Source: an uncultured Actinomycetota bacterium (lineage in GTDB: Bacteria; Actinomycetota; Actinomycetes; Streptosporangiales; Streptosporangiaceae). From it: DNA of 64,000 nt. The notes beneath the pieces were generated by a model. The model did not search any database. It saw only the letters and a list, made by a program, of their open reading frames with translations, and was not told where the DNA came from. The stretch covers positions 803,992-867,991 of the forward strand of contig CAWJUH010000003.1 of NCBI GenBank assembly GCA_963846005.1, read 5' to 3'. The position numbers and the translations under genes were made by a program. Of this stretch, positions 7,442 through 24,444 are shown in pieces. The number at the start of each line of letters is the position of its first letter. Position 1 is the stretch's first letter.

Positions 7442-7485
7442 GGTCGGGGTGGCCGGATTTGAACCGGCGGCCTCTTCGTCCCGAA
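7442..7485. repeat. 44-bp direct repeat identical to 24369..24412 (3' part of tRNA-Pro); distal att site of the integrated element
   Basis: Exact identity gtcggggtggccggatttgaaccggcggcctcttcgtcccgaa at both loci. Confidence 0.85.
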
Positions 7486-7911
7486 GCCAAGTTCCCGGCT
7501 CCCTGACGTCTGGACCTCGTGGGGTTGATCTGCTTGGCTCGTCTGCCAACGTCCGTGGGAGTCCACGAAGGAGCTAGGCGATTGTCACTCAGTTAGTCAC
7601 TCACTTCGGCACTGCCGGTGGAAGTGGTCACCTGCTTGCAAAGGTTGTGGCTGCACTCGCCTGACATACGGCTGCCCAGGTCAGGCGCTGTCGGACTTGC
7701 CCGTGAGTAACCGCGGCCGACTGCTAGCGGCCGTCCTAGCGGCACGCGGCGGGCACGACTGGCGATTTTCAAGATCGCTATGGCGCCGGTTTGGGTACTT
7801 GCCTGTGGCCTGCGCTGATGCCGCTAGGGCTGCCGAGCTCCGGCAAGCTCATCCCGTGCATATCCCGCACCTGATGAGCTGATCGGCGGCCGTGGCGGGA
7901 ACATAGCTGAC

Positions 7912-8460
7912 ATGAGTGATCTCATTGTCGTGACCGGGCCGCCGGGAGCTGGCAAGAGCACGGTCGCCCCGTCGTTGTCGCGACAGTTCGACCCCAGCGC
8001 CCTGGTGGCGGGGGACGTGTTCTTCGCCTTCATCGACCAGGGCTTTCTGGCGCCGTGGACCAGCGAGGCCCACCGTCAGAATGAGGTCGTCATCGACGCC
8101 GCAGCGGCTGCGGCAGGGCGCCTGGCCCGCGGCGGATACACGGTGGTCTATGACGGCGTGATCGGCCCGTGGTTCGTGCAGGCATTCGCGGCCGCCGCCG
8201 CCATCTCATCCCTCCACTACGTGATCTTGCTGCCGCCTGAGGAACTGTGCCTGGAACGAGTCCGCGTCAGGGCCGACCACGGCTTCCGGGACCAGGAGGC
8301 CGCCCGCCACATGTACCGGGAGTTCGCCACCGTCAGCGTTCATCCGCGGCACGTGCACGCCGGGACACAAGACGCAGCCAGCACCGCAACGATCTTGCGT
8401 GAACGAGTGCTCGATGGATCACTCCGCATAACCGCCGACTCCACCGATTCAGCCTCCTGA
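7912..8460 (+). CDS. P-loop NTPase / small kinase-like ATP-binding protein
   Basis: Walker A GPPGAGKST near N-terminus; 182 aa. Confidence 0.5.
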   Translation: MSDLIVVTGPPGAGKSTVAPSLSRQFDPSALVAGDVFFAFIDQGFLAPWTSEAHRQNEVVIDAAAAAAGRLARGGYTVVYDGVIGPWFVQAFAAAAAISSLHYVILLPPEELCLERVRVRADHGFRDQEAARHMYREFATVSVHPRHVHAGTQDAASTATILRERVLDGSLRITADSTDSAS

Positions 8461-9124
8461 TGCGTAGGCACCCGACAGGGCCGTCTGGGCTCGTTCAGAT
8501 CGGTCCGCGACCTTGGGCGCATCCTGGCTGGGCGTTCATTCCTGTTCGGATTCCCGCCAAGTCGTCCGCCCGGGTGGCTCCCAACTTGGCTCCCGACCGA
8601 TATGGGTCTGACCTCTTCCTCATCAGGGTGTCGGCTGACTGCCCAGGCGGTTGTCGGCGACGCTCGAATGTGGGGCTGTTGCCCCGGCGCCTATGGCCTC
8701 GTTTTCGAGCGGCGCCGACAGCGGTGGTTTCAGTCCTCTGTCCTGCGTTTACAGCACTAGTCTGCTCCCAGACCTGCCCTGTGATGTCCTGCGTCTGCCC
8801 GTACTTCCCAGGACTCTAAAGGCCACTGTAAGGCCAGCTCTAGGGAAGATCCGCTAGGAGCGGGGCCCGGCCAGGCTACTCGCCGATCAGCGCCTTGAAC
8901 GACGGCTCGTCGCGGATCGAGTTGAAGTCAGAGTCTTCGCGTGCATCTGCGCGGAGCTTCTCTGACGCGCCGACCGCGCTCCCCAAGTGATCGATCGCCT
9001 CGGCTGTGTGGCCGCTCAGGCTCTCGCTGCAGGGGAGGGAGGAAGGTGGATGCACGCGAAGATTCGCTTATCATCGAAGATGATTGCATGCAGTGCTTCG
9101 GAGGCGATGGGTGTGACAACGACG

Positions 9125-9556
9125 ATGGTCAGGATGATTATTGCGGTTTCGTCAGTATGCATGATTGCAGGCTGCGGGACAGCAGGCAATACAAGCCAAC
9201 CTTTGATGTCGCATAAAGCACATAAATTCATTACGGTTCCGACATCGTCAGCGCCGCCTGGCGCTCCAGGCCTGTCTGCCCTCACCAGAGGGCGTCTGGA
9301 GGCGGGCCGATTTAAGGGCAAGCCGTGTCTTTGGCTCGGGAACGGTACTCGCACGATGGCTGTTGTCTGGCCGCGAGGATTTAAAGCACGATGGCAGCGA
9401 GATAAGCTTGAGCTGCTGAATGCCCGGGGCAAGGTAGTTGCTGAGAGCGGCGAGATTATAAAGCTCGGGGGAGGAACGGCTCCTGCCCCGCAGGTCGCCT
9501 GCATGCTTGGTCATGAGCTAGCGTTCTACGCAAGCGGAGGCCCAGCGCGTGGCTAA
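9125..9556 (+). CDS. Putative lipoprotein (alternative start 9050)
   Basis: Signal peptide with lipobox MVRMIIAVSSVCMIAGC; lies in AT-richer island. Confidence 0.45.
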   Translation: MVRMIIAVSSVCMIAGCGTAGNTSQPLMSHKAHKFITVPTSSAPPGAPGLSALTRGRLEAGRFKGKPCLWLGNGTRTMAVVWPRGFKARWQRDKLELLNARGKVVAESGEIIKLGGGTAPAPQVACMLGHELAFYASGGPARG

Positions 9557-9575
9557 CGGCAGATGAGGCGATGCC

Positions 9576-10628
9576 TCATCCTACGGAAGTGCCGAAGAAC
9601 GAGTCGATGTTGCCTATTTGTTCATAGTAGCCGACGTGGCAATTGTCGCCTTGACTGTTACAGTCACCCCCTCCGATTGTAGTTCCGGCGATTTTGGCGC
9701 CGTTGCTGTCCCTCACAATCCATGGTCCTCCGCTGTCTCCTTCACTAACAACCGGAGTGTCGTCGTAGCCTGTGGATGTGACCCAGGCTCTGGTTATACC
9801 GTCGGAAAAGGCTACATACTGGTTGACACTTTGCACTGAGATGTCGTTTACTTCGCCCGTAAAGGCACTGTCTTGCGTGACCAAGTCGAAGGGCTGCGGA
9901 AAGGCAGTCCCGTCTTCAGCGTAGCTCGCCTGGCTTTTATCGCCCCCACTCCACACGTTCCATGAGTAGTTGCTGTTCGCGGAATTATGATCTATAAGCT
10001 CAGAATCGATGCAATTATTACAGAGCCGGACTTCAAAAACATTACCCATGTGCGGCCCGCCGGTCTGGCCAGACCTATCGCTTCTGTAAACATATTTATT
10101 AAGCTGCGGCTCGCAGTGACCAGCTGTTAGCATATAGTTATAACTGCCGATATGAACGATCGGTCCCCCGGTGCATTGGCTACTTGATGCGGGGATCAGA
10201 ATGAAGTCTCCTCCGAAGTATGGGGGCGTGTCATTTATCCGGTCTGCCGGTATGGGCCTGGGCATTGAAGTTTTTGAGACCACTACAGAATTACCGTACA
10301 GGGAATATAGTACATGAGCCGCCGCTTGGCTATAATGGGTGAGGCGAATTTCGACTTTGCCTGACCTGGGATCTGGACCCCACTGAGTCAGCTCTACACC
10401 TTTAGCTTTGAGGTTAGCCTCGCTGGCAGCGATGGATTGAGTAGTGACCTTATTCTGAGCCGACCCCCAGCCAAGCAAGGATGCCGGGTTGGGGTTATGG
10501 CCATCTCGCACTGTCTTCAGGCGAACCGACAGGGCTGCTGCCGACGTAGTTGCCATAGCAGGTCCGATCAGCAGGCAGGACACTGCAGAAATTGACACTG
10601 CAATTTTAACTAACTTAGGACTATTCAT
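9576..10628 (-). CDS. Secreted S1-family serine protease (chymotrypsin/streptogrisin-like)
   Basis: N-terminal signal peptide; catalytic His motif LTAGHC and Ser motif GDSGGP; visibly lower GC than flanks. Confidence 0.75.
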   Translation of the reverse strand: MNSPKLVKIAVSISAVSCLLIGPAMATTSAAALSVRLKTVRDGHNPNPASLLGWGSAQNKVTTQSIAASEANLKAKGVELTQWGPDPRSGKVEIRLTHYSQAAAHVLYSLYGNSVVVSKTSMPRPIPADRINDTPPYFGGDFILIPASSSQCTGGPIVHIGSYNYMLTAGHCEPQLNKYVYRSDRSGQTGGPHMGNVFEVRLCNNCIDSELIDHNSANSNYSWNVWSGGDKSQASYAEDGTAFPQPFDLVTQDSAFTGEVNDISVQSVNQYVAFSDGITRAWVTSTGYDDTPVVSEGDSGGPWIVRDSNGAKIAGTTIGGGDCNSQGDNCHVGYYEQIGNIDSFFGTSVG

Positions 10629-10971: not shown

Positions 10972-11706
10972 ATGTTCGCTATTGAGGAACGAGAGCGAGT
11001 GCGGGGCCGTTTGCTGGAGCTGGCCGCCGCCGACCCCACCGTGAACGGAGCCGCGGTCACCGGCTCGCACGCGGCGGGCAGTTCCGACCGGTGGTCAGAT
11101 ATCGACCTGGCGCTCGCTATCCCCGGCTCGCTGGCCGCTTCGCTTGATCAGTGGACGGATGTGCTGACCCGGGATTTCGCCGCGGTGCATCACTGGGATC
11201 TTCGGTCAGGCTCGGCGGTGTACCGCGTGTTCTTGCTGCCGGGCTGGCTGGAGGTGGACATCGCGTTCATCCCGGCCGCTGAGTTCGGCCCGCTCGGACC
11301 GAACTGGCGCACTGTCTTCGGCGCCACCGTGCCGCTCGAACCATCCGGTCCGCCGGAGTTCAGCCAGCTAGCTGGCCTGGCCTGGCATCACGCCCTGCAC
11401 GCCCGAGTCAGCATGGAGCGGCAACGGTACCTGCAAGCTGAATACTGGATCGGCGCAATGCGCAGCCAGGTGATCGCTTTGACCTGCCTGCGGCTCGGGT
11501 ACCCGGACGCCCATGCCAAGACCGCGCACCGGCTGCCCGCCGATGTCACCGCCCGGCTGGCCAACACGCTCGTCAGATCGCTGGATCCGGCTGAGCTGCG
11601 CCGCGCCCTGGCCGCCGCCACGACAGCCCTGTCCGCCGAGCTTGAATACCCCAGTAATAGCCAGACCAGACGGCTGGACTCGATGCTGATCGAACGGACA
11701 CGCTGA
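10972..11706 (+). CDS. Nucleotidyltransferase domain protein (Pol-beta superfamily; possibly antibiotic NTase-like)
   Basis: GS-x10-DID signature (VTGSHAAGSSDRWSDIDLALAI); ATG at 10972. Confidence 0.55.
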   Translation: MFAIEERERVRGRLLELAAADPTVNGAAVTGSHAAGSSDRWSDIDLALAIPGSLAASLDQWTDVLTRDFAAVHHWDLRSGSAVYRVFLLPGWLEVDIAFIPAAEFGPLGPNWRTVFGATVPLEPSGPPEFSQLAGLAWHHALHARVSMERQRYLQAEYWIGAMRSQVIALTCLRLGYPDAHAKTAHRLPADVTARLANTLVRSLDPAELRRALAAATTALSAELEYPSNSQTRRLDSMLIERTR

Positions 11707-12004: not shown

Positions 12005-12487
12005 CTAGTCAGCCCGTTCATTGATACTCGCTATCTCTTCTACAAATCGCGATCTAAGCTCCGCCAAGGTTTGAGGCAGGCACGACTCATCACAGCGCTT
12101 CTTGGTCGCATTAGTTATGTAGGTGAACCAGCTGTAAACCGGATCCCTGCCATAATTAGGTATGATTGGGTCTTTCTGGAGATCTTTCCTGATTTGCGCG
12201 CTTGACACGCGACATTCAATGAACTTCTCTTGATTGACAGGGAGGCGCAGGCAACGCCACTTCCAAGATCCATTCGAAGAAACCACAACTGCAGGCCCGC
12301 CTATGTTTATCTCCCAAAAGGTGACAAGAGGTTCACGTTTCCCAAGGAACCGTCCAAATTCAATCGAAAGCTCGCTTAGGCACTTCGCGACTTCGTCGTA
12401 GTGGTACAGCAGACTGGCCACTGCACCCTCACGATCACGCTTCTTCTGCTCCAGCAGATCTAGTGCTTCATCCTCGATGCTCGGCAT
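12005..12487 (-). CDS. Hypothetical protein (low-GC cargo)
   Basis: 160-aa ORF in AT-richer island; no recognizable motif. Confidence 0.4.
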   Translation of the reverse strand: MPSIEDEALDLLEQKKRDREGAVASLLYHYDEVAKCLSELSIEFGRFLGKREPLVTFWEINIGGPAVVVSSNGSWKWRCLRLPVNQEKFIECRVSSAQIRKDLQKDPIIPNYGRDPVYSWFTYITNATKKRCDESCLPQTLAELRSRFVEEIASINERAD

Positions 12488-12864: not shown

Positions 12865-13809
12865 TCAAGGCAGCGCAGAGTCTGCCGCGATATAGTAATA
12901 TTGAAGTATTCGTTCGCCTATTTCGGTGGGACTCCATTGCGTAGGGGACGTAAGGCCCACAGCGTCCCGTTCTGAGATTGCAGGCACAATTGGAGTCGAG
13001 TTATTGGCTGAGTAATATCCATGCGGAGAATGTGTATATGAGTCTGAAAGCGAGTCATTGCTTAGCTTTTTGGAATATTTCGCTAGCATGCTTGGAGAAT
13101 TATCGAATTGCTGCGCCAAGCCATGCCGCTGAAGCGTGGCGATCAGACTGGTCAGCACTTCTCGCAGTGAAGGTCTGGCTTCTTCAATTTGGTAGTTCGA
13201 CCATTTGCGCCGACCGATTGTCCAGCCGCTTCTGGTGAAATCTCCTGCAATGAACCCGTGGGGCCTAGTGTTGTGAATTGGAAATTTTTCATGCTTGATA
13301 GGACTGTCCTGTTTCCCGTCCTTCCCTTCGGATGGCACCCAGTTAACGATGAGCTCCAGTACAGATAGATGAGGGCGTTCCAAGTCTGCCATTGCAGGAA
13401 GGGCCAAATCAGCAAAGTATATCTGAGCTTCATCCGAAGCAATTAGGCCGCCCGCCAAGGCTCTGCCAAGTGCATGCACTTTAGGAGGCCAAGCCGTACT
13501 AGATGCCGAAGTCATCGCGTTCATTGCTATGAGCCGCGTACGTTCGGAAGCGTTAATCAGACCTGCGAGTTTCTCAGGGTCACACTCTGCCGCTATCGAG
13601 GCGCTGGTAAGCATTCCCTTAACTCGCCGTCGCGCGTCAGATCGGAATTCCCCCACGGCTTTGTTGAGGAAGTCCTCTAGATATGGACTGGAAAGTGCAC
13701 CAATTGCGATCCCATCGATTCCGCCTAGCCTTGCGCCTGCGACGACTGCGGAGGCATCAGCCACAGCTCTTATAAGGCGACTTGGTTCCTGATCCTCATC
13801 TGACGTCAC
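12865..13809 (-). CDS. Hypothetical protein (low-GC cargo)
   Basis: 314-aa ORF in AT-richer island; no recognizable motif. Confidence 0.45.
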   Translation of the reverse strand: MTSDEDQEPSRLIRAVADASAVVAGARLGGIDGIAIGALSSPYLEDFLNKAVGEFRSDARRRVKGMLTSASIAAECDPEKLAGLINASERTRLIAMNAMTSASSTAWPPKVHALGRALAGGLIASDEAQIYFADLALPAMADLERPHLSVLELIVNWVPSEGKDGKQDSPIKHEKFPIHNTRPHGFIAGDFTRSGWTIGRRKWSNYQIEEARPSLREVLTSLIATLQRHGLAQQFDNSPSMLAKYSKKLSNDSLSDSYTHSPHGYYSANNSTPIVPAISERDAVGLTSPTQWSPTEIGERILQYYYIAADSALP

Positions 13810-14404
13810 AGGGCATAGCCTAATCCGTCTTGACGATGATTCGAGCTCTCTCGATGGTTATCCGACTCAGCCACAGCTTCCCCGTCCTCCCTGGTAGGTG
13901 CCGAGATCTTGCCGGGGAAGGTCGCAGTCAAGGGGCGGCGCGTGCGCCGATCGCGTAGCGACGCGCCCTTGGGCGCGCCCTTTACTGTGACCTTTCTCCG
14001 GTGAGAGGATGCCCGGCGTGTGGAGGACGGCTCCTTCCGCCACACTGCGGGCTGCGCGTGGGCTATCCGTGCCGGGTGTTCGTGGCGGCCGGGCTGTGGT
14101 GCGGGCCGGGGCGGGGCGGACCTGCCTTGCGGCAGTTGCCCGCGCCGTGCCTCCCCAGGCTAAGGCAGCGGGCAGAACTGCCGCCCCGGCGCAGACAGTA
14201 GCCCCGCCACCCGGCACGCTGACGCCAAGGCGCCCTTGCTGCTTTTACTCGACGCGCTGCTCGGCTCAGGCTTTCGTGCGTGCCTGGCCGTCGGCGCCGG
14301 GCCGGGGTGCGGGCCGTCTGGCGCGCCCGCAAGGGCGTGCCCTTGAAGCTGTAGAGAAAATCGTCACAGTTCACAGGCACTAATTCGATGAAGCATTCGA
14401 CTGG

Positions 14405-15586
14405 TCAGGCGAGTGGAGGGCTAGGCCCGTCGCCTCCGATGGTGGTTCCTGTCGGCCATAGCTTCTCCAGCTCGGCGGGCGTGAGCGGATCCCGGTAAGC
14501 GGCTTGCAGGACACTGCGCCAGGCGTCGGCGGGCGCTTGCGCGAGCTGGGTGAACCAGTCAATGCCGGCGGGATAAGACCACTGGTAGGACCGCAGCAAG
14601 GGGTCTGCTCCCCGGTCAGTGAGCATGTCAGCGATCTCGGCTTCCGTCCAGAACGGAACATGGCCGCTCGCATAGGCGGCGCACTGGTCGATGCTGGCTC
14701 CGGAGTTCACCGCGATGTGCAGGGCCGCCCGTACGAGCTGGGTGTAGTGATCGATCCGGACTCTGGTCATCAGCAGCTTGTCGTCCGGCGCGACGAACAG
14801 CGGCAGCGTCTGGCCGAGTCCTTCCAGCAGTACCTGCTGGGGTGCGTGTACCGACAGCAGCCGGACCCACGGCACTGGACCGGCCGCGCAGCGCTGGGCG
14901 TAGCTGGCTCCCTGGAGACCGTGGCCCAGGATCTCGTGCAGGGCGAACTGGCGGGCGTGAGCTTCGGTGAACCGGGCTTCTTTGAGGTTGAGGCGCAGTC
15001 GAACGTCCGGTCCGCTGCCGTCGGTCCAGAAGGCCCAGTAGGCGTTGACGGTGGTGGTCTCGATGGTCAACTCATACGGCGCGGTGGCTCCCGTAAGTTC
15101 CCGGACGACCGGCTCGTATCTGAGGGCCGCGTCCCCGATGGCACCGGGGGCATCGGATGCGTCGATCGGCCTTTCGATGTGTTCCTGGTCTTTGCGGGTG
15201 CGGGCGTTCCAGCCGATGCCAAGGTCGGCCAGCTGGCGGCGTGCCAGCTCTCCTGCGTGCTGGATGTAGTCCTCAGGCCAGCCCAGGGCGTGACAGCCCT
15301 GGGTGCCGAAGATGTAGCTGTCCAGGTCGGCGCGCTGGCCCATCAGCTCCCGTAGGTAGAGCAGATGAGCCCCGGTCCGCTCGGCCAGCATCGGTTCGCC
15401 GCTGGCCTCGGCTTGCTGCTTCAATGCCGCTAGCCGTTGGTAGGTGGTCAGCCGGTCAGCAGGCTTGATGTCCTCGCTCGCGGACTGCGGGTGGCAGTCG
15501 TAGTCGATCACGGCGGGCGCACCGCGCGCCAGCTCGTGTTCGTGCCAGGCCCGCAACGCCCGCTCGATCTGGTCACGAAGCGGCAC
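14405..15586 (-). CDS. Putative zinc metallopeptidase (HExxH motif; DUF1704/ImmA-IrrE-like gluzincin is a guess)
   Basis: FALHEILGHGLQ motif; 393 aa; 14-nt overlap with the upstream gene. Confidence 0.45.
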   Translation of the reverse strand: MPLRDQIERALRAWHEHELARGAPAVIDYDCHPQSASEDIKPADRLTTYQRLAALKQQAEASGEPMLAERTGAHLLYLRELMGQRADLDSYIFGTQGCHALGWPEDYIQHAGELARRQLADLGIGWNARTRKDQEHIERPIDASDAPGAIGDAALRYEPVVRELTGATAPYELTIETTTVNAYWAFWTDGSGPDVRLRLNLKEARFTEAHARQFALHEILGHGLQGASYAQRCAAGPVPWVRLLSVHAPQQVLLEGLGQTLPLFVAPDDKLLMTRVRIDHYTQLVRAALHIAVNSGASIDQCAAYASGHVPFWTEAEIADMLTDRGADPLLRSYQWSYPAGIDWFTQLAQAPADAWRSVLQAAYRDPLTPAELEKLWPTGTTIGGDGPSPPLA

Positions 15587-16727: not shown

Positions 16728-16899
16728 CCCACCCTACCAAGGATGAGACATCTATGCGACATGGCGCACGCGGAAGAGGCGGAAACGACTCCCTACGACA
16801 CAACGGCGCAACACGGGCTTGGCTAATGCTCGTGTCATGGCCAGAAAGGCCAACCACGAGTCAGCCCAGCCAAAGGGTTGCCGAAGGAGAGGCAAGATC

Positions 16900-17238
16900 A
16901 TGCGACTTCTGATCGACACGAGCAGCGTCCAGTTTCGGGTGGCCGGTATGCCGAAGGAGCGTCCGGACTACAAGGACAAGGAGCGGCAGGCGACCACGCG
17001 CGAAGGGCAGCCGATCTGGACGGTGCGCCTGGACGCGATCGACACCGTGCGGGAGACCAAAGAAACCATCTGGGTCGAGGTGGCTGGCAACGAGCCCAAG
17101 CTGACCTTCGATGGCTTCGCCTCGGTCACCGGCCTGGTGTTCGCACCGTGGGTCGGGCGTGACGGCAAGATCCGCCGCTCATTCCGCGCCGACACCGTCG
17201 AGCCCGCCCCGGCCGCGAAGGCCGTGCACGCGGCCTGA
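16900..17238 (+). CDS. Hypothetical protein, first gene of AICE transfer/replication operon
   Basis: ATG at 16900 with GAAGGAGAGG RBS. Confidence 0.5.
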   Translation: MRLLIDTSSVQFRVAGMPKERPDYKDKERQATTREGQPIWTVRLDAIDTVRETKETIWVEVAGNEPKLTFDGFASVTGLVFAPWVGRDGKIRRSFRADTVEPAPAAKAVHAA

Positions 17239-17295
17239 GCCGTCCCCGGCCAGGCGGAACCATCCCCTACCTCGCGATCAGACCAAGGAGACCCC
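17227..17295 (+). promoter_or_regulatory. Conserved intergenic module copy 1 (box CCCCTACCTCGCGA plus AAGGAGA RBS)
   Basis: Shares a 30-40 bp core with copies at 17665..17755 and 18745..18829. Confidence 0.5.
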
Positions 17296-17661
17296 ATGAC
17301 CAGCATCCGCATCACCGGAATCGACTCCAGATTCGACGACCTGACCCCGGCGGAGTTCCCGCCGCTGCCGATCGGCGCGCTTGTCGCCGGGACGCTCAAC
17401 CTGCTGGAGGAATCCGGAGGGCTGCCCCAGCCGGTGTACCTCACCGTGTCCGACTCGCAGTCGGTGGATCTGCTGTTCGCCCCCGACCCGTCCAGCCTGC
17501 GGGCTATCGCCCGGTGGGCGATGCGCTTCGGCGGCGTCATGACCAGTGAGCCCCACCGGGGCAAGAGCGGCCCGGAGACCTGGTGCCGCGTCCAGTTCGA
17601 CTACTACGGCGTGGCCGTCTGTGCCTTCGCCCACATCCCGGTCTGCGCGACCACGCTCTGA
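17296..17661 (+). CDS. Hypothetical protein
   Basis: ATG preceded by AAGGAGA within a conserved intergenic module. Confidence 0.5.
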   Translation: MTSIRITGIDSRFDDLTPAEFPPLPIGALVAGTLNLLEESGGLPQPVYLTVSDSQSVDLLFAPDPSSLRAIARWAMRFGGVMTSEPHRGKSGPETWCRVQFDYYGVAVCAFAHIPVCATTL

Positions 17662-17664: not shown

Positions 17665-17755
17665 CCGGTGCCGGGCTGGAGGGCTGCCATCCCCCCCGTC
17701 CCGGCCAGCCACCACCCGATCCCTACCTCGCGAACGACGATCAAGGAGAACTGTT
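17665..17755 (+). promoter_or_regulatory. Conserved intergenic module copy 2 (nested hairpin plus box plus RBS)
   Basis: gccgggctggagggctgccatccccc...cccggccagcca...tccctacctcgcgaa...aaggagaact. Confidence 0.5.
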
Positions 17756-18744: not shown

Positions 18745-18829
18745 AGATGCCGGGCTGGGGGACTGCCATCCCCCGGCCCGGCCAGCCAGAACCATCCCCT
18801 ACCTCGCGAAAAGCAAAGGAGAACTCGGC
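18745..18829 (+). promoter_or_regulatory. Conserved intergenic module copy 3 (nested hairpin plus box plus RBS)
   Basis: gccgggctgggggactgccatcccccggcccggccagccagaaccatcccctacctcgcgaaaagcaaaggagaact. Confidence 0.5.
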
Positions 18830-19063
18830 ATGTCCGATCCTACCTTCCCCGCCCCCGGCCGGGTGGTCCTCGACTGGCGGCGCGGCCAGATCGGCCCGCT
18901 CGCCCCGTGCGTGATCTGCGGGCGGCTGGCCATCTGCCGCTCCCCGGGCAAGAACGCGCCCTGCCACAAGCGGTGCGCCGAAACCTGGATCACCACCCAC
19001 GCCAGCCCGCGTGACCAGCGCAGGCTGATCCGCGCCAACACTCCGCGAGGTGGTGCCAGGTGA
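18830..19063 (+). CDS. Small Cys-rich protein
   Basis: CVICGRLAICRSPGKNAPCHKRC; preceded by conserved module. Confidence 0.45.
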   Translation: MSDPTFPAPGRVVLDWRRGQIGPLAPCVICGRLAICRSPGKNAPCHKRCAETWITTHASPRDQRRLIRANTPRGGAR

Positions 19064-19443
19064 GCGGCTTCCGGGTCATCTACCACGCGACCGTCTGTCC
19101 CGACTGCGGATCAGATGAGGTCACCGAGCACGACATCGTCATGACTGACGGCACGGCCGAGACCGCGCTGACTTGCGGCCAGTGCGGCGCAGCATGGCCG
19201 GTGGCCTGCGTCGCTGAGAACCTACAGCCCGCTAGCCCCGACCCGGCATGCGCACCGCACCTGGCCTTGCGGATCGACGCCAAACCGCCCGGCACTGCCG
19301 CTGAGCACCGCCGCTACTGGTGCCCCCGCTGCGACGCCTACCTGACCGGCACGGAACTGGCCACCACGAGCGCGTTGCACTACACGCCCGGCCCCGACCG
19401 CATCATCACCCGCGCCGATCTCACCCCGGCAGGCCGGTCATGA
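19060..19443 (+). CDS. Zinc-ribbon-containing hypothetical protein
   Basis: CPDCGS...CGQCG and CPRCD motifs; start overlaps upstream stop. Confidence 0.45.
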   Translation: MSGFRVIYHATVCPDCGSDEVTEHDIVMTDGTAETALTCGQCGAAWPVACVAENLQPASPDPACAPHLALRIDAKPPGTAAEHRRYWCPRCDAYLTGTELATTSALHYTPGPDRIITRADLTPAGRS

Positions 19444-19835
19444 CCGCCCGCGTCCCCGCCCTCGACGCTATCCAGGCCCGCGGACTGCGGGTGGTGTCCT
19501 ACGACCCGGACGGCAGCCGGCACGGCCTGCCCACTTACCCCTGGCGATGGGCACCCGCTGGGCTGCTCACCCGCCGCCAGCTCCGCGCCAAGGGCCTGCG
19601 CCCCGGCGGCCAGGAAATCTGTGCGCAGATCCTGTGGCGCCGCGGCAAGCGCGTCGCCTACCTCTACGCCGAGCAACTCGCCCTGCCCAAGCGCACCGCG
19701 ACCGCCGCGCAGCTCGCCGCGGTCGCCAAGGCCCTGACCGCCCGGCGCACCTGCCCGGCCTGCGGCCAGCTCAAGTCCTACTACATCCCCCGATCCACCG
19801 GCGAATGCCTCAACTGCACCCCCGGAAGGCGGTGA
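19440..19835 (+). CDS. Hypothetical protein with C-terminal CxxC...CxxC motif
   Basis: ATGA start/stop overlap with upstream gene; RRTCPACGQ...ECLNC. Confidence 0.45.
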   Translation: MTARVPALDAIQARGLRVVSYDPDGSRHGLPTYPWRWAPAGLLTRRQLRAKGLRPGGQEICAQILWRRGKRVAYLYAEQLALPKRTATAAQLAAVAKALTARRTCPACGQLKSYYIPRSTGECLNCTPGRR

Positions 19836-19841
19836 CACCCG

Positions 19842-20531
19842 ATGTCCGCGAACACCCCTGGCCGTGGCACTGGCCGTAACCGGCGCGCCAGCAGCCCCTA
19901 CATCATCGATGACCTGTTCGTCACCATGCACCGCTCGGCCGCCGGAACGGCCTGGCGGTGGCGCACCGAACTCACCCTCCTCACCGCAACCATGGCGCTC
20001 GGATGGCGACTGACGGTGATCATGACTTTCACCTGGGCCGCGATCACTATCGCTGCGGGCCTGGCCGTCGTGCTGGCGCTGCCGCCAACCCGGCGGTTCA
20101 CGGTGCGCCGGTTCTGGTGCGTGCTGGCCCGCCACCGGCTGCACAAGCTGTGCTGGGAAGCCCACCTGCATACCCGCTCCGGCAGGCTGCCGCTGATCTT
20201 GTGGACCCGGCCGACCAAGGTCGGAGAACGGGCCTGGATCGTGTGCCGGGCCGGGATCTGCGCCGAGGACTTCGAGAACAACCTCGGCGAGATCCGCTCC
20301 GCCTGCTACGCCCGCGACGCGCGGGTCACCAGCAACACCCGCTGGTCCCACCTGATCACCGTCGATGTGATCCGCCGCGACACCCTCGCCGCCCGCCACC
20401 AGGTGGCATCACCCCTGCCCCGCCTGCCCCGGCCCGCGCCGGACCCGCAGGCCAGTTCCCGGCGGCCGTCGTGGCCCGACCGGCCCGCCCTGCCCGGCCC
20501 CGACACGGCCGACATCATCCCCATCCGCTAG
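19842..20531 (+). CDS. Membrane protein (Spd/Tra N-terminal-like)
   Basis: Hydrophobic segments (LTLLTATMALGWRLTVIMTFTWAAITIAAGLAVVLAL). Confidence 0.45.
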   Translation: MSANTPGRGTGRNRRASSPYIIDDLFVTMHRSAAGTAWRWRTELTLLTATMALGWRLTVIMTFTWAAITIAAGLAVVLALPPTRRFTVRRFWCVLARHRLHKLCWEAHLHTRSGRLPLILWTRPTKVGERAWIVCRAGICAEDFENNLGEIRSACYARDARVTSNTRWSHLITVDVIRRDTLAARHQVASPLPRLPRPAPDPQASSRRPSWPDRPALPGPDTADIIPIR

Positions 20532-20602
20532 CAGGCCTGGCCCGGCCCTCCCCCTGCGGCGGGCCGGGCCAGCCAGCCCACCTTTTGAAGGAAGTGATCC
20601 TT

Positions 20603-21436
20603 ATGACCACCACCCTGATCCCGCCGCTGGCCTCCCTGGCGGTGCCGGTGTTCCCGCTGTCGATCTGGCAGCCGGTGCACCTGGGCATGGACGAGCACGG
20701 CGACCAGGTCCACGTCGACCTGGCCGAGCGGAACATGCTGCTGGGCGGCGAACCCGGCGGCGGCAAGTCCAACGGCCTCAACCTCATCACCGCCCACGGC
20801 GCCCTGTCCGGCGACTGCAAGCTCGTCCTCATCGACGGCAAGCAAGTCGAACTCGGCGCCTGGCGGCACTGCGCCGACACCTTCGTCGGCCCGTCCATCA
20901 CCGACGCGATCGACTGCGGCAAGTACCTCCAGCAGATCATGAACACCCGCTACGACGCCCTGCTCGCCAACGGGCTCCGCAAGATCACCCCGGAGACCGG
21001 CGAGCCGGTCTACCTGGTGATCATCGACGAATACGCCTACTTCTCCGCCACCGTCGGCACCAAAGCCCAGCAGGCCGAGTACTCGGCGCTGACCCGGGAT
21101 CTGGTGGCCCGGGGCCGGGCCGCCGGGGTGATCGTCATCCTGGCCACCCAGCGGCCCTCGCATCAAGTAATCGACCCCTCGCTGCGGGACCTGTTCGGCT
21201 ACCGGTGGGCCTTTCGCTGCACCACCGACAGCTCCTCGGATGTGGTGCTCGGCCAGGGCTGGGCCACCGCGGGCTATTCCGCCGCCACCATCGACCCGCT
21301 CGCTCGCGGGGTGTCGTGGCTGCTGTCGGAGACCGGCGAGCCCCGGCGAATCAAGGCCGCCTACCTGGCCGACGCCGAAATTGCTTACCTCGCCACCTGG
21401 GCCGCCCAGCTCCGCCGCAAGGAGCCCGTGCCGTGA
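20603..21436 (+). CDS. tra: FtsK/SpoIIIE-family DNA translocase ATPase (TraSA/TraB-like conjugal transfer protein)
   Basis: Walker A GGEPGGGKSN, Walker B LVIIDEYA; RBS GAAGGAAGTGA. Confidence 0.7.
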   Translation: MTTTLIPPLASLAVPVFPLSIWQPVHLGMDEHGDQVHVDLAERNMLLGGEPGGGKSNGLNLITAHGALSGDCKLVLIDGKQVELGAWRHCADTFVGPSITDAIDCGKYLQQIMNTRYDALLANGLRKITPETGEPVYLVIIDEYAYFSATVGTKAQQAEYSALTRDLVARGRAAGVIVILATQRPSHQVIDPSLRDLFGYRWAFRCTTDSSSDVVLGQGWATAGYSAATIDPLARGVSWLLSETGEPRRIKAAYLADAEIAYLATWAAQLRRKEPVP

Positions 21437-22902
21437 CCATCACCACATCGGCGTTCCCTCTCAGCCCCGGCTCAGATGATGGTCCGGGGCTGGGAGAGTC
21501 CGCCGAGCCCGCGATCACCCTGACCTGGGCCGAACTCGACGCTGAGATCCGCCAGGCCGAGCGCACCGGCCTGTGCGCCCACCCCATCCGGCTCAAGGGC
21601 CGCATCGACGCGGTAGACCTGGCCACCGGCGAGCTGCGCCCGATGTATGACACCGGCAGCGAACCCGGCGGCGTACTGCACGTCGCGTGCGGGAACCGGC
21701 GCGAGTCCGCCTGCCCGGCCTGCTCCCAGACCTACAAACGCGATGCCCGCCAGCTCGTCAAGACCGGGCTCGCAGGCGGCAAGGGCATCCCCGAGACCAT
21801 CACCGCCCATCCGTGCGTGTTCGCCACCTTCACCGCCCCCTCCTTCGGCCCGGTGCACTCCCGGCGCAAGCGCGGCAAGACGATCCTGCCCTGCCGCCCC
21901 CGCCGCGACGCCAGCCGACGGGCCTGCCCACATGGCCGCGACATCTCCTGCGCTCACCGCCACGCCCAAGACGACCCGCTGCTCGGCCGGGCGCTGTGCC
22001 CGGACTGCTACGACTACACCGCCGCAGTGCTGTTCAACGCTCACGCGGGGGACCTGTGGAAACGGTTCGTCACCTACCTGCCCCGCCACCTGGCCCGCCA
22101 CGCCGGGCTCACCCAGCGCCAGCTCCGCCGCCAGGCATCCGTGCGGTTCGTCAAGGTGGCCGAGGGTCAAGCCCGCGGCGTCATCCACTACCATGCCGTC
22201 ATCCGCCTCGACCGACCCGGCGAGAGCTACCAGCCGCCCGGCCCGGCCTTCACCACCGCCCTGCTCGACCAGGCCATCCGCACCGCCGCTGCCGCCGCCC
22301 GGTTTCCGGTCGGCCCCAGCCCAGACCACCCGGACGCGCCCGCCCTCACGCTGCGGTTCGGCGCGCAGGTCCACGTCCGGCCGATCCGCCGCGACCACGA
22401 CCGGCAACTCCCCGCCACCGGCCACGAGCTGCCACCCCAGGCTGTGGCCAACTACATCGCCAAGTACGCCACTAAGGACATCGAAGCCCCCGGCCTCCCC
22501 TCCGCGCGGATCACCACCCGCCACGACCTCGACCAGCTGCACTGCGCAAGCCACTACCGGCGCATGATCACCGCGGCGTGGGAGCTGGGTGGCGGCAAGC
22601 TCACTCCCGGCACCCGGCCGTCCCGGCTGTGCCGCTGGGCGCACCAGCTCGGCCACGGCGGCCACTTCCTCTCCAAGTCCCAGCGGTACTCGCTGACTTT
22701 CGGCCAGCTCCGCCGCGCCCGCACCCAGCACCGCAAAGCACAGCGCCACCCCGAAGGCCCCCGCGACCCCTGGGACCGCCCCATCAACGAGACCACCGTC
22801 CTGGTCCTGTCCACCTGGACCTACGACGGTCCCGGCCAGCCCATCACTTCCGGCGCTGACCTGGCCCTCGTATCAGCCGACCGAGCGCGAGCCCACGAAT
22901 AG
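21433..22902 (+). CDS. rep: RepSA-like rolling-circle replication initiator (HUH endonuclease)
   Basis: GTG start overlapping tra stop; HUH motif VIHYHAVIRLD and Tyr motif YIAKYATK; Cys clusters. Confidence 0.65.
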   Translation: MTITTSAFPLSPGSDDGPGLGESAEPAITLTWAELDAEIRQAERTGLCAHPIRLKGRIDAVDLATGELRPMYDTGSEPGGVLHVACGNRRESACPACSQTYKRDARQLVKTGLAGGKGIPETITAHPCVFATFTAPSFGPVHSRRKRGKTILPCRPRRDASRRACPHGRDISCAHRHAQDDPLLGRALCPDCYDYTAAVLFNAHAGDLWKRFVTYLPRHLARHAGLTQRQLRRQASVRFVKVAEGQARGVIHYHAVIRLDRPGESYQPPGPAFTTALLDQAIRTAAAAARFPVGPSPDHPDAPALTLRFGAQVHVRPIRRDHDRQLPATGHELPPQAVANYIAKYATKDIEAPGLPSARITTRHDLDQLHCASHYRRMITAAWELGGGKLTPGTRPSRLCRWAHQLGHGGHFLSKSQRYSLTFGQLRRARTQHRKAQRHPEGPRDPWDRPINETTVLVLSTWTYDGPGQPITSGADLALVSADRARAHE

Positions 22903-22946
22903 CTGACCTCCGCCCGACTACGCATCTGCCGAAAGGAAGTGATCCC

Positions 22947-23156
22947 ATGGATCCCATTGCTGCCCAGCTCACGGGCAGGCAGCTTTACAAGATCACGGAC
23001 GCCATGACTGTGCTATCGATGAGCCGCAGCGTCATCTACGAGCAGATCCGTTCCGGTCGCCTGCGCTCGGTCACCCAGGGCCGCGCTCGGCTCATCCCCG
23101 CCTCGGCGATTGCCGAATACATCGCGCTTCTTGAACAAGAATCGCAGGTCGCGTAA
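22947..23156 (+). CDS. xis: Excisionase / DNA-binding HTH (Xis)
   Basis: 69 aa, LYKITDAMTVLSMSRSVIYEQIRSGRL; immediately upstream of int. Confidence 0.65.
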   Translation: MDPIAAQLTGRQLYKITDAMTVLSMSRSVIYEQIRSGRLRSVTQGRARLIPASAIAEYIALLEQESQVA

Positions 23157-24301
23157 TGGCCGTCCGGCGTAGCCGAGGCGACGGCGGTCTCTACTGGGAC
23201 AAAACCCGCCAACGGTGGATTGCGGAAGTCACGGTCGGATACACACCGGGCGGCAGACGGATCGTCAAGAAGGCGAGCAACCGCACCAAGACAGCCGCAC
23301 AGCGGAAGCTGAAAGAGATCATCCGCGACTACGACGATGGGCTCGCCACCGGGCCGCACGGCTATACCGTGGCCCAGGCCGTCAGCGATTGGCTGGCATT
23401 CGGGCTAAGTGGCCGTGACCCTGCCACAGTCGGCAAGTGCACGATCCTGGCCAACACCCATGTCCTACCTGCCCTAGGCGCTCGCAAGCTGCGCGACCTC
23501 TCTGCCGATGACGTGGACCGCTGGATGGCGGACAAAGCTAAGACGCTGAGCACTAGGACTCTGCAGGAGGTCCGCTCCGTTCTCAAGCGCGCGATCACCC
23601 GCGCCCAGGCCCGCGACAAGGTGAAGCGCAACGTCGTGCTGCTGTGCGAGGTCCCGCAGGGCCGCGCGGGACGGCCGTCGAAATCCCTGACGTTCGCGCA
23701 AGCCGAGGCGTTGCTGGCGGCGGCAGATGGCAGCGATCTGTACGCGTACATCACCCTGTCGCTTCTGATCGGCGCCCGCACCGAGGAACTGCGGGCACTT
23801 ACCTGGTCGCATGTCGATCTTGACGGCGATCAACCTGCGATTATGGTCTGGCGCTCGGTGCGAGCTGGCGGTGACACCAAGACCAGGAAGTCACGCCGGA
23901 CGCTGGCGCTACCTCAGCGTTGCGTGGCCGCGCTGCGCGATCACCGGGCGCGGCAAGAGCAGATCAGCCGGGCAGCTGGCAGCAACTGGCAGGACAACGA
24001 CCTGGTTTTTCCTTCTCGGGTCGGCACGCCCGCTGATGCCTCCCATGTCCGCCGGTCCTTCCGCCGTGTCGTCCAGGCGGCCAGGCTCGACCCGGGGGAG
24101 TGGACGCCGCGTGAACTGCGGCACAGCTTCGTGTCGCTGCTCTCCGATGCTGGCGTCCCGATCGAGCAGATTTCCCGGTTGGTCGGCCACAGCGGGAGCG
24201 CGACTACAGAGATGATCTACCGGAAGCAAATCCGGCCAGTGATCGAACATGGGGCAGACGCCATGGATCGGATCTTCCCCGCCGAGGTCCGCGATGCTTA
24301 G
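23156..24301 (+). CDS. int: Tyrosine integrase (pSAM2 Int-like)
   Basis: R...HxxR (LRHSFVSLL) and LVGHSGSATTEMIYRK catalytic Tyr region; adjacent to tRNA-Pro. Confidence 0.85.
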   Translation: MAVRRSRGDGGLYWDKTRQRWIAEVTVGYTPGGRRIVKKASNRTKTAAQRKLKEIIRDYDDGLATGPHGYTVAQAVSDWLAFGLSGRDPATVGKCTILANTHVLPALGARKLRDLSADDVDRWMADKAKTLSTRTLQEVRSVLKRAITRAQARDKVKRNVVLLCEVPQGRAGRPSKSLTFAQAEALLAAADGSDLYAYITLSLLIGARTEELRALTWSHVDLDGDQPAIMVWRSVRAGGDTKTRKSRRTLALPQRCVAALRDHRARQEQISRAAGSNWQDNDLVFPSRVGTPADASHVRRSFRRVVQAARLDPGEWTPRELRHSFVSLLSDAGVPIEQISRLVGHSGSATTEMIYRKQIRPVIEHGADAMDRIFPAEVRDA

Positions 24302-24370
24302 TCACTCAGATAGTCACTCAGCGCTCATCGGAGCGAGTCCAATTTCGGTTGATAATTGCTCTGACCTGGG

Positions 24371-24444
24371 TCGGGGTGGCCGGATTTGAACCGGCGGCCT
24401 CTTCGTCCCGAACGAAGCGCGCTGCCAAGCTGCGCCACACCCCG
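24371..24444 (-). tRNA. tRNA-Pro (anticodon CGG)
   Basis: Manual cloverleaf: acceptor CGGGGTG/CACCCCG, anticodon loop TTCGGGA, T-arm GCCGG-TTCAAAT-CCGGC; CCA not encoded. Confidence 0.85.

Follow-up and report, generated by a model that had tools for sequence, protein, structure and literature searches.

A probable pSAM2-like integrative and conjugative element at tRNA-Pro(CGG) of a Trebonia-like actinomycete, with an uncharacterised two-gene pair in its putative regulatory region

Boundaries of the element and its host locus

The window, that is, the whole 64-kb stretch of DNA analysed, contains an intact tRNA-Pro(CGG) gene, and a perfect 44-bp copy of its 3′ part lies further to the left in direct orientation (7442-7485 = 24369-24412), which delimits an insertion of 16,927 bp. 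No further copy of this repeat occurs in the 64-kb window at up to 13 mismatches, and 0 matches would be expected by chance. On the tRNA strand, the repeat begins with the anticodon loop (TT-CGG-GA), at its first base, and extends to the tRNA 3′ end. In pSAM2, the identity segment likewise spans the tRNA from anticodon loop to 3′ end. The features of the two ends are as follows.

7442-7485, no strand: attL, 44-bp att identity segment, copy of the 3′ part of tRNA-Pro (perfect repeat of 24369-24412)
7584-7604, plus strand: putative arm-type Int-binding repeat pair GTCACTCAGTTAGTCACTCAC, attL-proximal arm
24301-24321, plus strand: putative arm-type repeat pair GTCACTCAGATAGTCACTCAG, attR-proximal arm
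24369-24444, minus strand: tRNA-Pro(CGG) (ARAGORN; Rfam tRNA, 64 bits), its 3′ 44 nt (24369-24412) forming attR

The putative arm-type repeats are tandem, share the consensus GTCACTCAG[T/A]TAGTCACTCA and are present in both att arms. The motif GTCACTCA occurs five times in the 64 kb, and four of these five occurrences make up the two tandem pairs of the att arms. The TAGTYACTCA tandem pair located 3′ of the Int stop codon is kept in the relatives L001, L045, L025, L067, L028 and L052, and ~160 bp of element-internal arm beside attL share 83% identity with the corresponding arm of an element remnant in L001. The predicted attP of the excised circle reads ..CTGACCTGG + 44 bp + GCCAAGTTCC..; exact junction scans of metagenome contigs matched neither attP nor an empty attB with these flanks.

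The synteny of a phosphoesterase gene and the tRNA-Pro gene is kept in 78 of 80 relatives. Among the 65 informative Streptosporangiales loci, a full Int homologue is present in seven, Int fragments in 12, and no related integrase in 46. Since the synteny is preserved while so few loci contain a full Int, the element is an insertion. The earlier note, written from the sequence alone, had proposed an element of ~16.9 kb at 7442-24444, with an att segment that covers the tRNA from its anticodon loop to its 3′ end, and had called for a comparison with related genomes; the coordinates prove exact, and the repeat and the comparison both agree with the proposal. Its placement of the element in a conserved housekeeping region holds for the right flank (phosphoesterase, PBP, WhiB and ArsA-like ATPases), but not for the left flank (1-7441), which is variable, has a lower GC3 and carries two overlapping tyrosine recombinase genes (4632-6101 and 6098-7201). 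In the 80 relatives, the only counterparts of the left-flank proteins downstream of the tRNA are a recombinase homologue, in L067, and weak matches to LuxR domains; at the DNA level, the left flank shows no homology to six relatives except for the same recombinase segment of L067. We rejected the classification of this flank as a RIT (recombinase-in-trio), which needs three adjacent, co-oriented tyrosine recombinases where two are present. No third recombinase was recognised in a scan of the ORFs other than 3441-4415; this is the only long minus-strand ORF downstream of the recombinases, and it coincides in part with a methyltransferase gene that Pfam supports strongly.

Core and cargo genes

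The right part of the element is a co-oriented core, consisting of a Pra-like regulator (listed in the next section), a DUF932 gene, three small Cys-rich proteins, a membrane protein, Tra, RepSA, Xis and Int, together with a conserved protein of unassigned function.

17245-17295, 17669-17755 and 18748-18829, plus strand: three intergenic units (GC hairpin, then box ATCCCCTACCTCGCGA, then RBS)
17296-17661, plus strand: conserved AICE core protein, function unassigned, 121 aa; homologue with 65% identity at the corresponding position of L045
17756-18739, plus strand: DUF932/TIGR03299 protein, 327 aa (Pfam 157 bits; TIGR03299 268 bits)
18830-19063, plus strand: small Cys-rich protein, 77 aa, 5 Cys; homologue in L045 and L059
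19060-19443, plus strand: Zn-ribbon protein, 127 aa, 8 Cys (ECs_2282 CxxC family, E=3.7e-6)
19440-19835, plus strand: RRQRL-motif CxxC_CxxC zinc-binding protein, 131 aa (NCBIfam NF041638, 132 bits; cut-off 65)
19842-20531, plus strand: membrane protein, Spd-like candidate, 229 aa (hydrophobicity)
20603-21436, plus strand: TraSA-like FtsK/SpoIIIE DNA translocase, 277 aa (PF01580, 44 bits)
21433-22902, plus strand: RepSA rolling-circle replication initiator, 489 aa (PF20199, 477 bits; cut-off 34)
22947-23156, plus strand: Xis excisionase, 69 aa (HTH_17, Pfam 39 bits)
23156-24301, plus strand: tyrosine integrase Int, 381 aa (PF00589, 81 bits)

Each of the eleven core ORFs is intact, and their starts, RBSs and overlaps are plausible. 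The genes tra, repSA, xis and int follow one another in this order, overlapping (tra/repSA and xis/int) or adjacent. As read from the sequence, Int contains the catalytic residues R (GARTEEL), H/R (LRHS), H (VGHS) and Y (MIYRK), and it shares 82-84% identity with the Ints that L045, L059 and L067 carry at this tRNA. Xis scores 28.2 bits against TIGR01764 (cut-off 28.8). RepSA, whose GTG start overlaps the tra stop codon and whose exact 489-aa product is on record, has the HUH-like motif HYH and the motif NYIAKY (YxxKY); its score of 393 bits is below the NCBIfam RepSA equivalog cut-off of 700. Tra, preceded by an RBS and starting with ATG, has the Walker A motif GGEPGGGKS and the Walker B motif VIIDE, and is 85% identical to its L045 homologue. 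The membrane protein has one above-threshold hydrophobic segment (residues 57-75) inside a hydrophobic stretch of ~44-80, and its gene is followed by a GC hairpin (20537-20572). The ATG of the RRQRL protein gene overlaps the preceding stop codon, and the start of the DUF932 gene was taken as the ATG downstream of an RBS. The intergenic hairpin/box units are kept in L045 and L059, and the third has a predicted fold of -41 kcal/mol (z=-3.1). Thus far, the repertoire is the one that the earlier note had listed: int and xis directly beside the tRNA, a RepSA-like HUH initiator, a short FtsK/SpoIIIE Tra, a membrane protein, a DUF932 gene and small Cys-rich ORFs are all present. No ORF scanned matched a relaxase or T4SS family, and neither a dso (origin of replication) nor a clt site was identified in the element.

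Accessory, mosaic DNA makes up the left 9 kb (7.5-16.7 kb), which includes the following genes.

7912-8460, plus strand: P-loop kinase (AAA_33 type), 182 aa (Pfam AAA_33, 47 bits)
8987-9556, plus strand: possible small lipoprotein, a weak call (internal Met, lipobox IAGC, from the ORF translation)
9576-10628, minus strand: candidate secreted S1 (chymotrypsin-fold) serine protease, 350 aa, low GC
10972-11706, plus strand: nucleotidyltransferase-fold protein, 244 aa (GS..D.D motif)
12005-12487, minus strand: 160-aa orphan protein without a family match, low GC
12865-13809, minus strand: 314-aa protein of a rare uncharacterised family, low GC

The atypical low-GC cargo mentioned in the earlier note is borne out: the GC content is 0.53-0.56 at ~9-10.7 kb and 11.9-13.9 kb, as compared to 0.70-0.75 for the host, and the GC3 falls from 0.95 in the right flank to about 0.8-0.9 in the core genes and about 0.55 in this cargo. 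The gene of the protease candidate itself has a GC content of 0.53-0.56, and the product has an N-terminus that resembles a signal peptide and contains TAGHC and GDSGGP motifs, with weak profile matches to Pfam Trypsin (E=0.036) and factor Xa (E=0.016). The nucleotidyltransferase-fold protein has weak matches only (NTP_transf_2, E=0.012; MntA, E=0.0014), as does the P-loop kinase in NCBIfam (nucleotide/polynucleotide kinases), and the possible lipoprotein ORF has no Pfam match. The 314-aa family has 39 homologues besides the present member, nearly all from metagenome or raw-read assemblies and all 39 without a functional name; the two neighbourhoods inspected feature integrase fragments, an AAA_15/21 ATPase and an Mrr-type nuclease. 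None of the 80 relatives has the cargo genes at its locus.

The putative regulatory region

The pair and the Pra-like regulator lie where the cargo gives way to the core.

14405-15586, minus strand: pair gene 2, HExxxH metallopeptidase-like protein, 393 aa, DUF885/DUF1704-MATCAP fold
15573-16697, minus strand: pair gene 1, 374-aa protein, helical N-terminal domain and beta C-terminal domain, at the kor position
16711-16752, no strand: candidate operator, inverted repeat GATGTCTCA ... TGAGACATC, in the divergent intergenic region between the pair and pra
16900-17238, plus strand: Pra-like regulator (SCO3933 family), 112 aa (NCBIfam NF051478, E=3.7e-11)

SCO3933 has been described as a Pra homologue (PMC8584621). 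The NF051478 match of the Pra-like regulator is full-length, at 43 bits, below the curated cut-off of 80. KorSA (GntR) had no match in any ORF, and tblastn with the KorSA of L045 found nothing in the element; likewise, neither a match nor a remnant of Pif (NUDIX) was found in the element, while L045 has a NUDIX gene. In pSAM2, KorSA and Pif keep the element integrated and immune. Since both are absent, without remnants, the present element could be deregulated or defective.

What occupies the place of KorSA? Pair gene 1 is divergent from pra and overlaps the HExxxH gene by 14 nt. The called 374-aa product (P0124) is 100% identical, and its AF2 model has a pLDDT of 85. The N-terminal domain is predicted by AF2 to be a helical bundle, and the C-terminal domain resembles the N-terminal beta domain of M1 aminopeptidases (6iff and 6a8z, E about 7e-6) at a low TM of 0.25-0.33. 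No HTH was detected in 34 family members, by a PDB profile search or by hhalign. In Nocardia and Frankia, the gene-1 partners differ at the N-terminus, which appears XRE-like by eye in L081; the partner in L090 has a weak HTH_31 match. The pair gene 1 product may bind DNA.

In the HExxxH protein, H217-E218-x-x-x-H222 is invariant across 33 homologues, and none of its 584 homologues carries a Pfam domain. The AF2 model (pLDDT 91.6) matches the DUF885 structures 3o0y and 3iuk in Foldseek (E about 1e-4), and MATCAP 7z6s at E=0.03. The pair is widespread and recurs at the corresponding place in at least two other AICEs that look intact. In L088 and L091 it is transcribed divergently from a pra-family gene, and in L083 and L090 it lies at the AICE ends. 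Each arm of the candidate operator is unique within the 64-kb window, and TGTCTCAT...(A/C)GAGACA is kept at the same intergenic place in L088 and L091.

These arrangements suggest that the pair may supply a repressor or switch function in place of KorSA. In ICEBs1, ImmR/ImmA, as in other XRE-COG2856 pairs, combine a repressor with a metalloprotease anti-repressor. The likeness, an analogy only, lies in a two-gene operon at the regulatory end of the element that encodes a metallopeptidase-like protein and a candidate DNA-binding product. Unlike ImmA, the peptidase is not of the M78 (COG2856) type and has no Pfam match, with an HExxxH DUF885/MATCAP-like fold of about 390 aa; unlike ImmR, its partner has no detectable XRE HTH, and its beta domain resembles the M1 peptidase N-terminal domain.

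Identity, alternatives and proposed life cycle

Taking the modules of an AICE (actinomycete integrative and conjugative element) as given by te Poele 2008 and Ghinet 2011, which allow a tyrosine or serine integrase and RepSA, RepAM or Prim-Pol as initiator, we find a tyrosine integrase adjoining an att site that overlaps a tRNA 3′ end, direct identity segments bounding the element, its own replication initiator (RepSA), and a single FtsK/SpoIIIE-domain Tra, with no relaxase or T4SS among the ORFs scanned. In AICEs, attB overlaps the tRNA 3′ end, and the target of pSAM2 is Pro-tRNA (PMC2440964). With pSAM2 (Streptomyces ambofaciens, 10.9 kb), the element has in common this tRNA-Pro insertion, the repSA-xis-int operon with Pra (here matched below the curated cut-off), a short TraSA resembling FtsK, a RepSA of the rolling-circle type and, on both sides of the core, arm-type Int sites (here putative); the comparison is one of gene content, family profiles and descriptions. 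As compared to pSAM2, the element is 6 kb larger, with unrelated cargo, DUF932 and several Zn-binding small proteins, its RepSA is below the equivalog cut-off, and KorSA and Pif are missing. The “pSAM2-type” label of the earlier note thus suits the integration, replication and transfer modules, but fails for the regulatory module, because these two proteins are absent.

In pACPL, the 13.6-kb AICE found in Actinoplanes sp. SE50/110, the att identity segment at the tRNA-Pro 3′ end measures 43 nt, as compared to 44 nt here, and attP is flanked by 21-nt repeats, GTCACCCAGTTAGT(T/C)AC(C/T)CAG, that were likened to the pSAM2 arm-type sites and are near-identical to GTCACTCAG(T/A)TAGTCACTCA(C/G) of the present element (PMC3364876). 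pACPL also carries int-xis-repSA, tra, spd and pra (PMC3364876), but it has the regulator gene reg, a NUDIX gene and mdp, none of which occurs in the present element with its pair, and the host orders differ. The closest relative is the AICE of L045 (MAG contig CAVSNQ010000018.1), at the orthologous tRNA-Pro(CGG) and with the same core gene order. The DNA identity is 76-81% from 16887 (pra) to int, and the protein identities are 82% for Int, 85% for Tra, 83-89% for DUF932 and 79% for Pra. L045 has KorSA (GntR+UTRA) and a NUDIX gene beside pra, where the present element has neither, and its homology to the window ends 13 nt upstream of the pra start codon.

Is the element still autonomous? The absence of KorSA and NUDIX, both retained in L045, would fit a non-autonomous genomic island derived from an AICE, in which the loss of korSA/pif and the 9 kb of foreign cargo were accompanied by the loss of self-regulation or of establishment after excision. 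Decay is indeed common at the tRNA-Pro locus, as seen from the Int fragments in 12 of 65 loci and the heavily frameshifted element of L059, and every tested element protein is a singleton at 90% identity, which gives no sign of recent spread. However, the eleven core ORFs are intact, the att cores are identical at 44 of 44 positions, and both arms retain intact arm repeats. Moreover, AICEs without a GntR regulator and with other regulators near pra have already been described in Frankia (PMC3218068), and at least two other AICEs that look intact have the replacement pair at this position. We therefore regard such an island as unlikely.

An integrated prophage or phage-derived satellite at tRNA-Pro would share the tyrosine integrase, the excisionase and the tRNA site, which are also typical of temperate phages, and DUF932/TIGR03299 is labelled “phage/plasmid-like”; this origin is highly improbable, as no ORF scanned matched a capsid, terminase, portal, tail or lysis family, and RepSA and the FtsK-type Tra are plasmid/AICE functions. 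That the DNA is ancestral to the chromosome, with the 44-bp repeat a local duplication, is refuted: nothing besides the repeat itself speaks for it, the repeat coincides exactly with the 3′ part of the tRNA, most relatives lack this content downstream of the orthologous tRNA, and the GC3 of core and cargo differs from that of the right flank. Accordingly, we conclude that the insertion is very probably a 16.9-kb AICE, apparently intact and self-transmissible, in tRNA-Pro(CGG) of a Streptosporangiales (Trebonia-like) actinomycete. For this AICE we propose the following life cycle, modelled, from excision onward, on pSAM2 and other AICEs.

Integration: Recombination by the tyrosine integrase would have put the element into the 3′ half of tRNA-Pro(CGG).

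Excision: Pra may activate the operon. Int and Xis would recombine the att cores, releasing the 16,927-bp circle and restoring the tRNA.

Replication and transfer: RepSA, as an HUH-type nickase, would replicate the circle in the rolling-circle mode. A hexamer of the single FtsK-like Tra would pump double-stranded DNA into the recipient mycelium, where small or membrane proteins may help the spread, and Int would re-integrate the element at the recipient tRNA-Pro.

The sole unusual feature of the element is that an uncharacterised two-gene module replaces the standard repressor and immunity genes. The element is otherwise of an ordinary kind, and this pair is the only lead to follow.

Insertion site and integration module

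The tRNA-Pro(CGG) gene (24369..24444, minus strand) is the sole tRNA detected in the window by ARAGORN, and Rfam concurs. A repeat search revealed a 44-bp perfect direct repeat, with one copy at 7442-7485 (attL) and the other at 24369-24412 (attR). On the tRNA strand the repeat reads TTCGGGACGAAGAGGCCGCCGGTTCAAATCCGGCCACCCCGACC; it opens with the first anticodon-loop base and continues to the gene's 3′ end. One repeat plus the DNA between the repeats amounts to 16,927 bp. The boundaries of 7442-24444 proposed in the earlier note are exact with respect to both the tRNA and the repeat. No third att copy or tandem array is present in the 64-kb window, either with up to 3 mismatches, where the chance expectation is 0, or even with up to 13.

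The window has five copies of the 8-mer GTCACTCA, four of which make up two tandem pairs, each located inside the element and beside one of the att cores.

Arm repeat pairs of the element
7584-7604, GTCACTCAGTTAGTCACTCAC, element-internal, beside one att core
24301-24321, GTCACTCAGATAGTCACTCAG, element-internal, beside the other att core

In pACPL, an AICE of Actinoplanes, a 43-nt identity segment lies at the 3′ end of tRNA-Pro, and attP is flanked by 21-nt repeats, GTCACCCAGTTAGT(T/C)AC(C/T)CAG, which the authors compared to the arm-type sites bound by the pSAM2 integrase (PMC3364876). The arm repeats in the window match the pACPL repeats almost perfectly. In addition, six related elements that occupy this tRNA have a TAGTYACTCA tandem pair 3′ of the stop codon of Int. 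Judged by its sequence, the integration module is of the pSAM2/pACPL tRNA-Pro type, as both the site and the arm architecture match. Neither the predicted attP junction (..TTGCTCTGACCTGG / 44-bp core / GCCAAGTTCCCGGC..) nor the empty attB (..ACATGCGAATATGT / core / CGAAGCGCGCTGCC..) has an exact match in metagenome contigs, a result that is uninformative. The best public homologues of Int (64% identity) and Xis (68%) reside in Nonomuraea gerenzanensis, where a GntR gene and a distant Tra accompany them. This Int homologue has no adjoining tRNA-Pro, the closest tRNA being a tRNA-Ile about 1.1 kb away, and it is thus of no help in defining the target of the Int family. The 11.85-Mb N. gerenzanensis record (NZ_LT559118.1, 671624-712757) is filed as a "plasmid" in PLSDB.

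Is the DNA between the repeats inserted or ancestral? We fetched 80 orthologous loci carrying the tRNA-adjoining phosphoesterase gene from species-representative genomes, all of them Streptosporangiaceae or Trebonia-like MAGs (best, 83% protein and 81.6% DNA identity). The phosphoesterase/tRNA-Pro(CGG) synteny is present in 78 of the 80. Among the 65 loci with at least 2.5 kb past the tRNA, a full-length Int homologue follows directly in 7, Int fragments are found in 12, and 46 have neither. Ancestral chromosomal DNA is thereby excluded, as the relatives keep the phosphoesterase and the tRNA, but 46 of 65 loci lack Int. The cargo genes of the element are absent from all 80 loci, and a second att copy bounds other elements in several of them. 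A conserved gene downstream of the tRNA, sought as the empty-site flank, was not found across the loci. The tRNA-Pro(CGG) beside the phosphoesterase/PBP/WhiB cluster is a recurrent, hypervariable insertion hotspot in this lineage.

The locus of the nearest genome (L001, 11181-17637) contains an att-bounded remnant of ~6.4-6.5 kb, which shares the att cores and the arm repeat with our element and retains a fragment of Int. In another relative (L028, 11177-17654), a similarly sized stretch is flanked by 101-nt repeats of 98% identity, and its Int is also broken. The broken Int genes in these two stretches point to turnover and decay at the hotspot. Int, RepSA, and two of the cargo proteins are singletons at 90% identity among ~15 billion proteins.

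Gene content and flanks

The right half of the element (16.9-24.3 kb) is a plus-strand block in which all of the genes are co-oriented.

Core genes of the element
16900-17238, plus strand, Pra-like regulator of the SCO3933 family
between the Pra-like gene and DUF932, plus strand, conserved protein of 121 aa
17756-18739, plus strand, DUF932/TIGR03299
after DUF932, plus strand, three small Cys-rich/Zn-binding proteins, one of them RRQRL CxxC_CxxC
19842-20531, plus strand, membrane protein
20603-21436, plus strand, FtsK/SpoIIIE Tra, 277 aa, Walker A GGEPGGGKS and Walker B VIIDE
21433-22902, plus strand, RepSA, PF20199 (477 bits), HYH and NYIAKY motifs
22947-23156, plus strand, Xis, HTH_17
23156-24301, plus strand, tyrosine integrase Int, with the R, H-x-x-R, H, and Y residues

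The catalytic motifs of Tra, RepSA, and Int are all seen in the translations, which supports their function. The GTG start of repSA overlaps the tra stop, and the 489-aa product is identical to a protein-collection entry; xis and int overlap by one base. An intergenic unit—a strong GC hairpin, the box ATCCCCTACCTCGCGA, and then an RBS—occurs in three copies (17245-17295, 17669-17755, and 18748-18829), each 5′ of a core gene. The unit is kept in the closest relative of the element (L045) and in a decayed element (L059), and has no Rfam match; the tRNA is the only RNA family matched in the element.

With att repeats at tRNA-Pro and with Tra, RepSA, Xis, and Int in place, the element is very probably a RepSA/TraSA AICE, and the earlier reading of it as an AICE was essentially right. 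It is a new member of a well-known kind, which is common in actinomycete genomes. No scanned ORF of the element matches a relaxase, T4SS, or phage structural family, and the last of these results excludes a prophage. The element could also be a non-autonomous derivative. The state observed is the integrated one, in which the att cores, the arms, and the core genes are all intact. We consider such a derivative unlikely, with the RepSA/TraSA AICE as the preferred reading.

The cargo region of this AICE (7.5-14.4 kb) is a mosaic.

Cargo genes (7.5-14.4 kb)
AAA_33-type kinase
possible lipoprotein
secreted S1-like protease candidate, low GC, with TAGHC and GDSGGP motifs and marginal family scores
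nucleotidyltransferase-fold protein
two orphan genes, low GC

PDB sequence searches of the cargo proteins returned a marginal factor Xa match for the protease and nothing else, and PADLOC found no meaningful defence system in the cargo. One orphan, of 314 aa, represents a rare family. Its 39 homologues, none functionally named, come nearly all from metagenome or raw-read assemblies, and both contexts examined for this family resemble genomic islands.

The surroundings had been described as a conserved housekeeping region. This is accurate for the right flank, which holds the phosphoesterase, a class A PBP, WhiB, and two ArsA-like ATPases, but not for the left flank (1-7441), where GC3 is ~0.80-0.86, as compared to 0.95 on the right, and which has nearly no counterparts in the relatives. 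Two recombinase genes lie 240 bp outside attL.

Left-flank recombinases
4632-6101 and 6098-7201, minus strand, two overlapping tyrosine recombinases of 489 and 367 aa (PF00589, 106 and 108 bits)

Past them are glyoxalase-like, PNPOx-like, methyltransferase, and LuxR genes. In the 80 relatives, the left-flank proteins have no counterpart except for a recombinase homologue in L067 and weak LuxR-domain matches. The L067 homologue is 51% identical and lies inside the att-bounded region of that locus, and this segment is the sole DNA match of the left flank in a comparison with six relatives. The left flank may be older accreted foreign DNA, and its recombinases may be what is left of an older element that used this hotspot. 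A recombinase-in-trio (RIT) reading was ruled out, because the recombinases number only two.

Elsewhere in the window, a 348-aa gene (52265-53311) has a c-di-AMP (ydaO-type) riboswitch upstream (53318-53481, minus strand; 58 bits, gathering score 38). Three tandem repeats have periods divisible by three: 59133-59424 (27 nt, 11 copies), 60580-60678 (24 nt, 4.1 copies, 98% matches), and 25878-25955 (24 nt, 3.2 copies), the last of them between the phosphoesterase and PBP genes.

A two-gene module at the kor position

In the reviewed AICEs, pra is repressed by the GntR protein KorSA, and immunity is conferred by the NUDIX protein Pif (PMC2440964). The closest relative, L045, carries a GntR+UTRA gene and a NUDIX gene beside pra, whereas our element lacks both, although the two are similar in Int (82% protein identity), Tra (85%), and DUF932 (83-89%), with 76-81% DNA identity. 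The homology to L045 ends 13 nt upstream of the pra ATG. ORF family searches, as well as tblastn and blastn searches with the L045 genes, detected no KorSA or NUDIX gene or remnant in the element. The label "pSAM2-type" in the earlier note thus fits the integration module, with its tRNA-Pro site and arm repeats, but not the regulatory module. Frankia AICEs that lack GntR and have other regulators near pra were already noted (PMC3218068), and the absence of GntR is therefore not new by itself.

The kor position is occupied by an operon of two genes that overlap by 14 nt, divergent from pra across a 202-bp intergenic region.

Genes of the pair
15573-16697, 374-aa protein, AF2 pLDDT 85
14405-15586, 393-aa protein, AF2 pLDDT 91.6, invariant H-E-x-x-x-H

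In its AF2 model, the 374-aa protein has a helical domain at the N terminus (~85 residues), which a linker joins to a beta domain at the C terminus. The beta domain best matches the N-terminal beta domain of M1 aminopeptidases (Foldseek E ~7e-6, with low TM-scores). No HTH was detected in the N-terminal domain when 34 family members were scanned with Pfam, nor by PDB profile searching or hhalign against an XRE-like partner. Structurally, the 393-aa protein resembles 3o0y and 3iuk, both from DUF885, with a weaker match to MATCAP, which likewise has an atypical HExxxH motif. Neither protein has a Pfam, NCBIfam, or PADLOC match. Both families are widespread in actinomycetes (584 matches for the HExxxH protein and 125 for the 374-aa protein), all annotated as hypothetical, and the HExxxH family was not found in viral contigs.

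We sampled seven genomic contexts of the HExxxH family, one of which is the window. Five of the seven are AICEs that carry the pair at their distal end: the window, L083 (Actinomadura), L088, L090 (Frankia coriariae), and L091. An SCO3933/Pra-family gene is the divergent neighbour of the pair in three of these, namely the window, L088, and L091. The other two, from Nocardia and Saccharothrix, are not obviously AICEs. The pair-bearing AICEs differ in integrase and target: the L088 Int is 60% identical and the element is located at tRNA-Pro(GGG), while L090 is at tRNA-Arg.

In Saccharothrix sp. ALI-22-I (L089, 4223-11188), the neighbours of the pair are an APH kinase, IS elements, and two large tyrosine recombinases (518 and 739 aa), and the region adjoins a type I-E CRISPR-Cas locus. 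Both there and in Frankia L090, the HExxxH gene overlaps at its end with a GGACT-family gene. In our element, two short non-coding stretches downstream of the HExxxH gene (13960-14031 and 14310-14372) are 79-86% identical to DNA of L059, where the counterpart lies beyond pra in the decayed element; these stretches may be a relic of the ancestral backbone.

Upstream of the pair, in the intergenic region shared with pra, is a 9-bp inverted repeat, GATGTCTCA (16711-16719) and TGAGACATC (16744-16752). Neither arm recurs elsewhere in the window, and L088 and L091 keep the repeat, making it a candidate operator. In an AICE remnant of S. coelicolor, the korSA homologue SCO3932 is divergent from the pra homologue SCO3933, and the repressor binds the intergenic region shared by the two genes (PMC8584621). 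The pair occupies the same topological position relative to pra as SCO3932. From this korSA-like position and the conserved inverted repeat, we infer a role for the pair as a repressor or switch. More specifically, and only tentatively, the pair could be an undescribed AICE regulatory switch that replaces KorSA. The 374-aa protein would repress pra and its own gene through the inverted repeat, and the HExxxH peptidase partner would lift the repression on a signal. Such a scheme is analogous to that of ImmR/ImmA, although the folds are unrelated.

Proposed transfer cycle and implications

How would the element move? The following steps are modeled on established AICE biology (PMC2440964). With Pra as the presumed activator, Int and Xis would release the element as a circle of 16,927 bp and so leave the tRNA restored. 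RepSA would then drive rolling-circle replication, and the FtsK-like Tra would transfer double-stranded DNA, with the membrane and small proteins aiding the spread. Finally, the element would re-integrate at tRNA-Pro.

Gene flow among mycelial actinomycetes relies chiefly on AICEs, and with this element their range extends to a poorly sampled, mostly uncultured lineage of Streptosporangiales. Its apparently intact Int/Xis/attP set, with a 44-bp core and defined arm repeats, could serve in integration vectors. The recurrent HExxxH pair at the kor position is the sole part worth following up, the rest of the element being routine: the clean exchange of KorSA/Pif for an uncharacterised, widespread two-gene module offers a handle on the control of AICEs that lack GntR.
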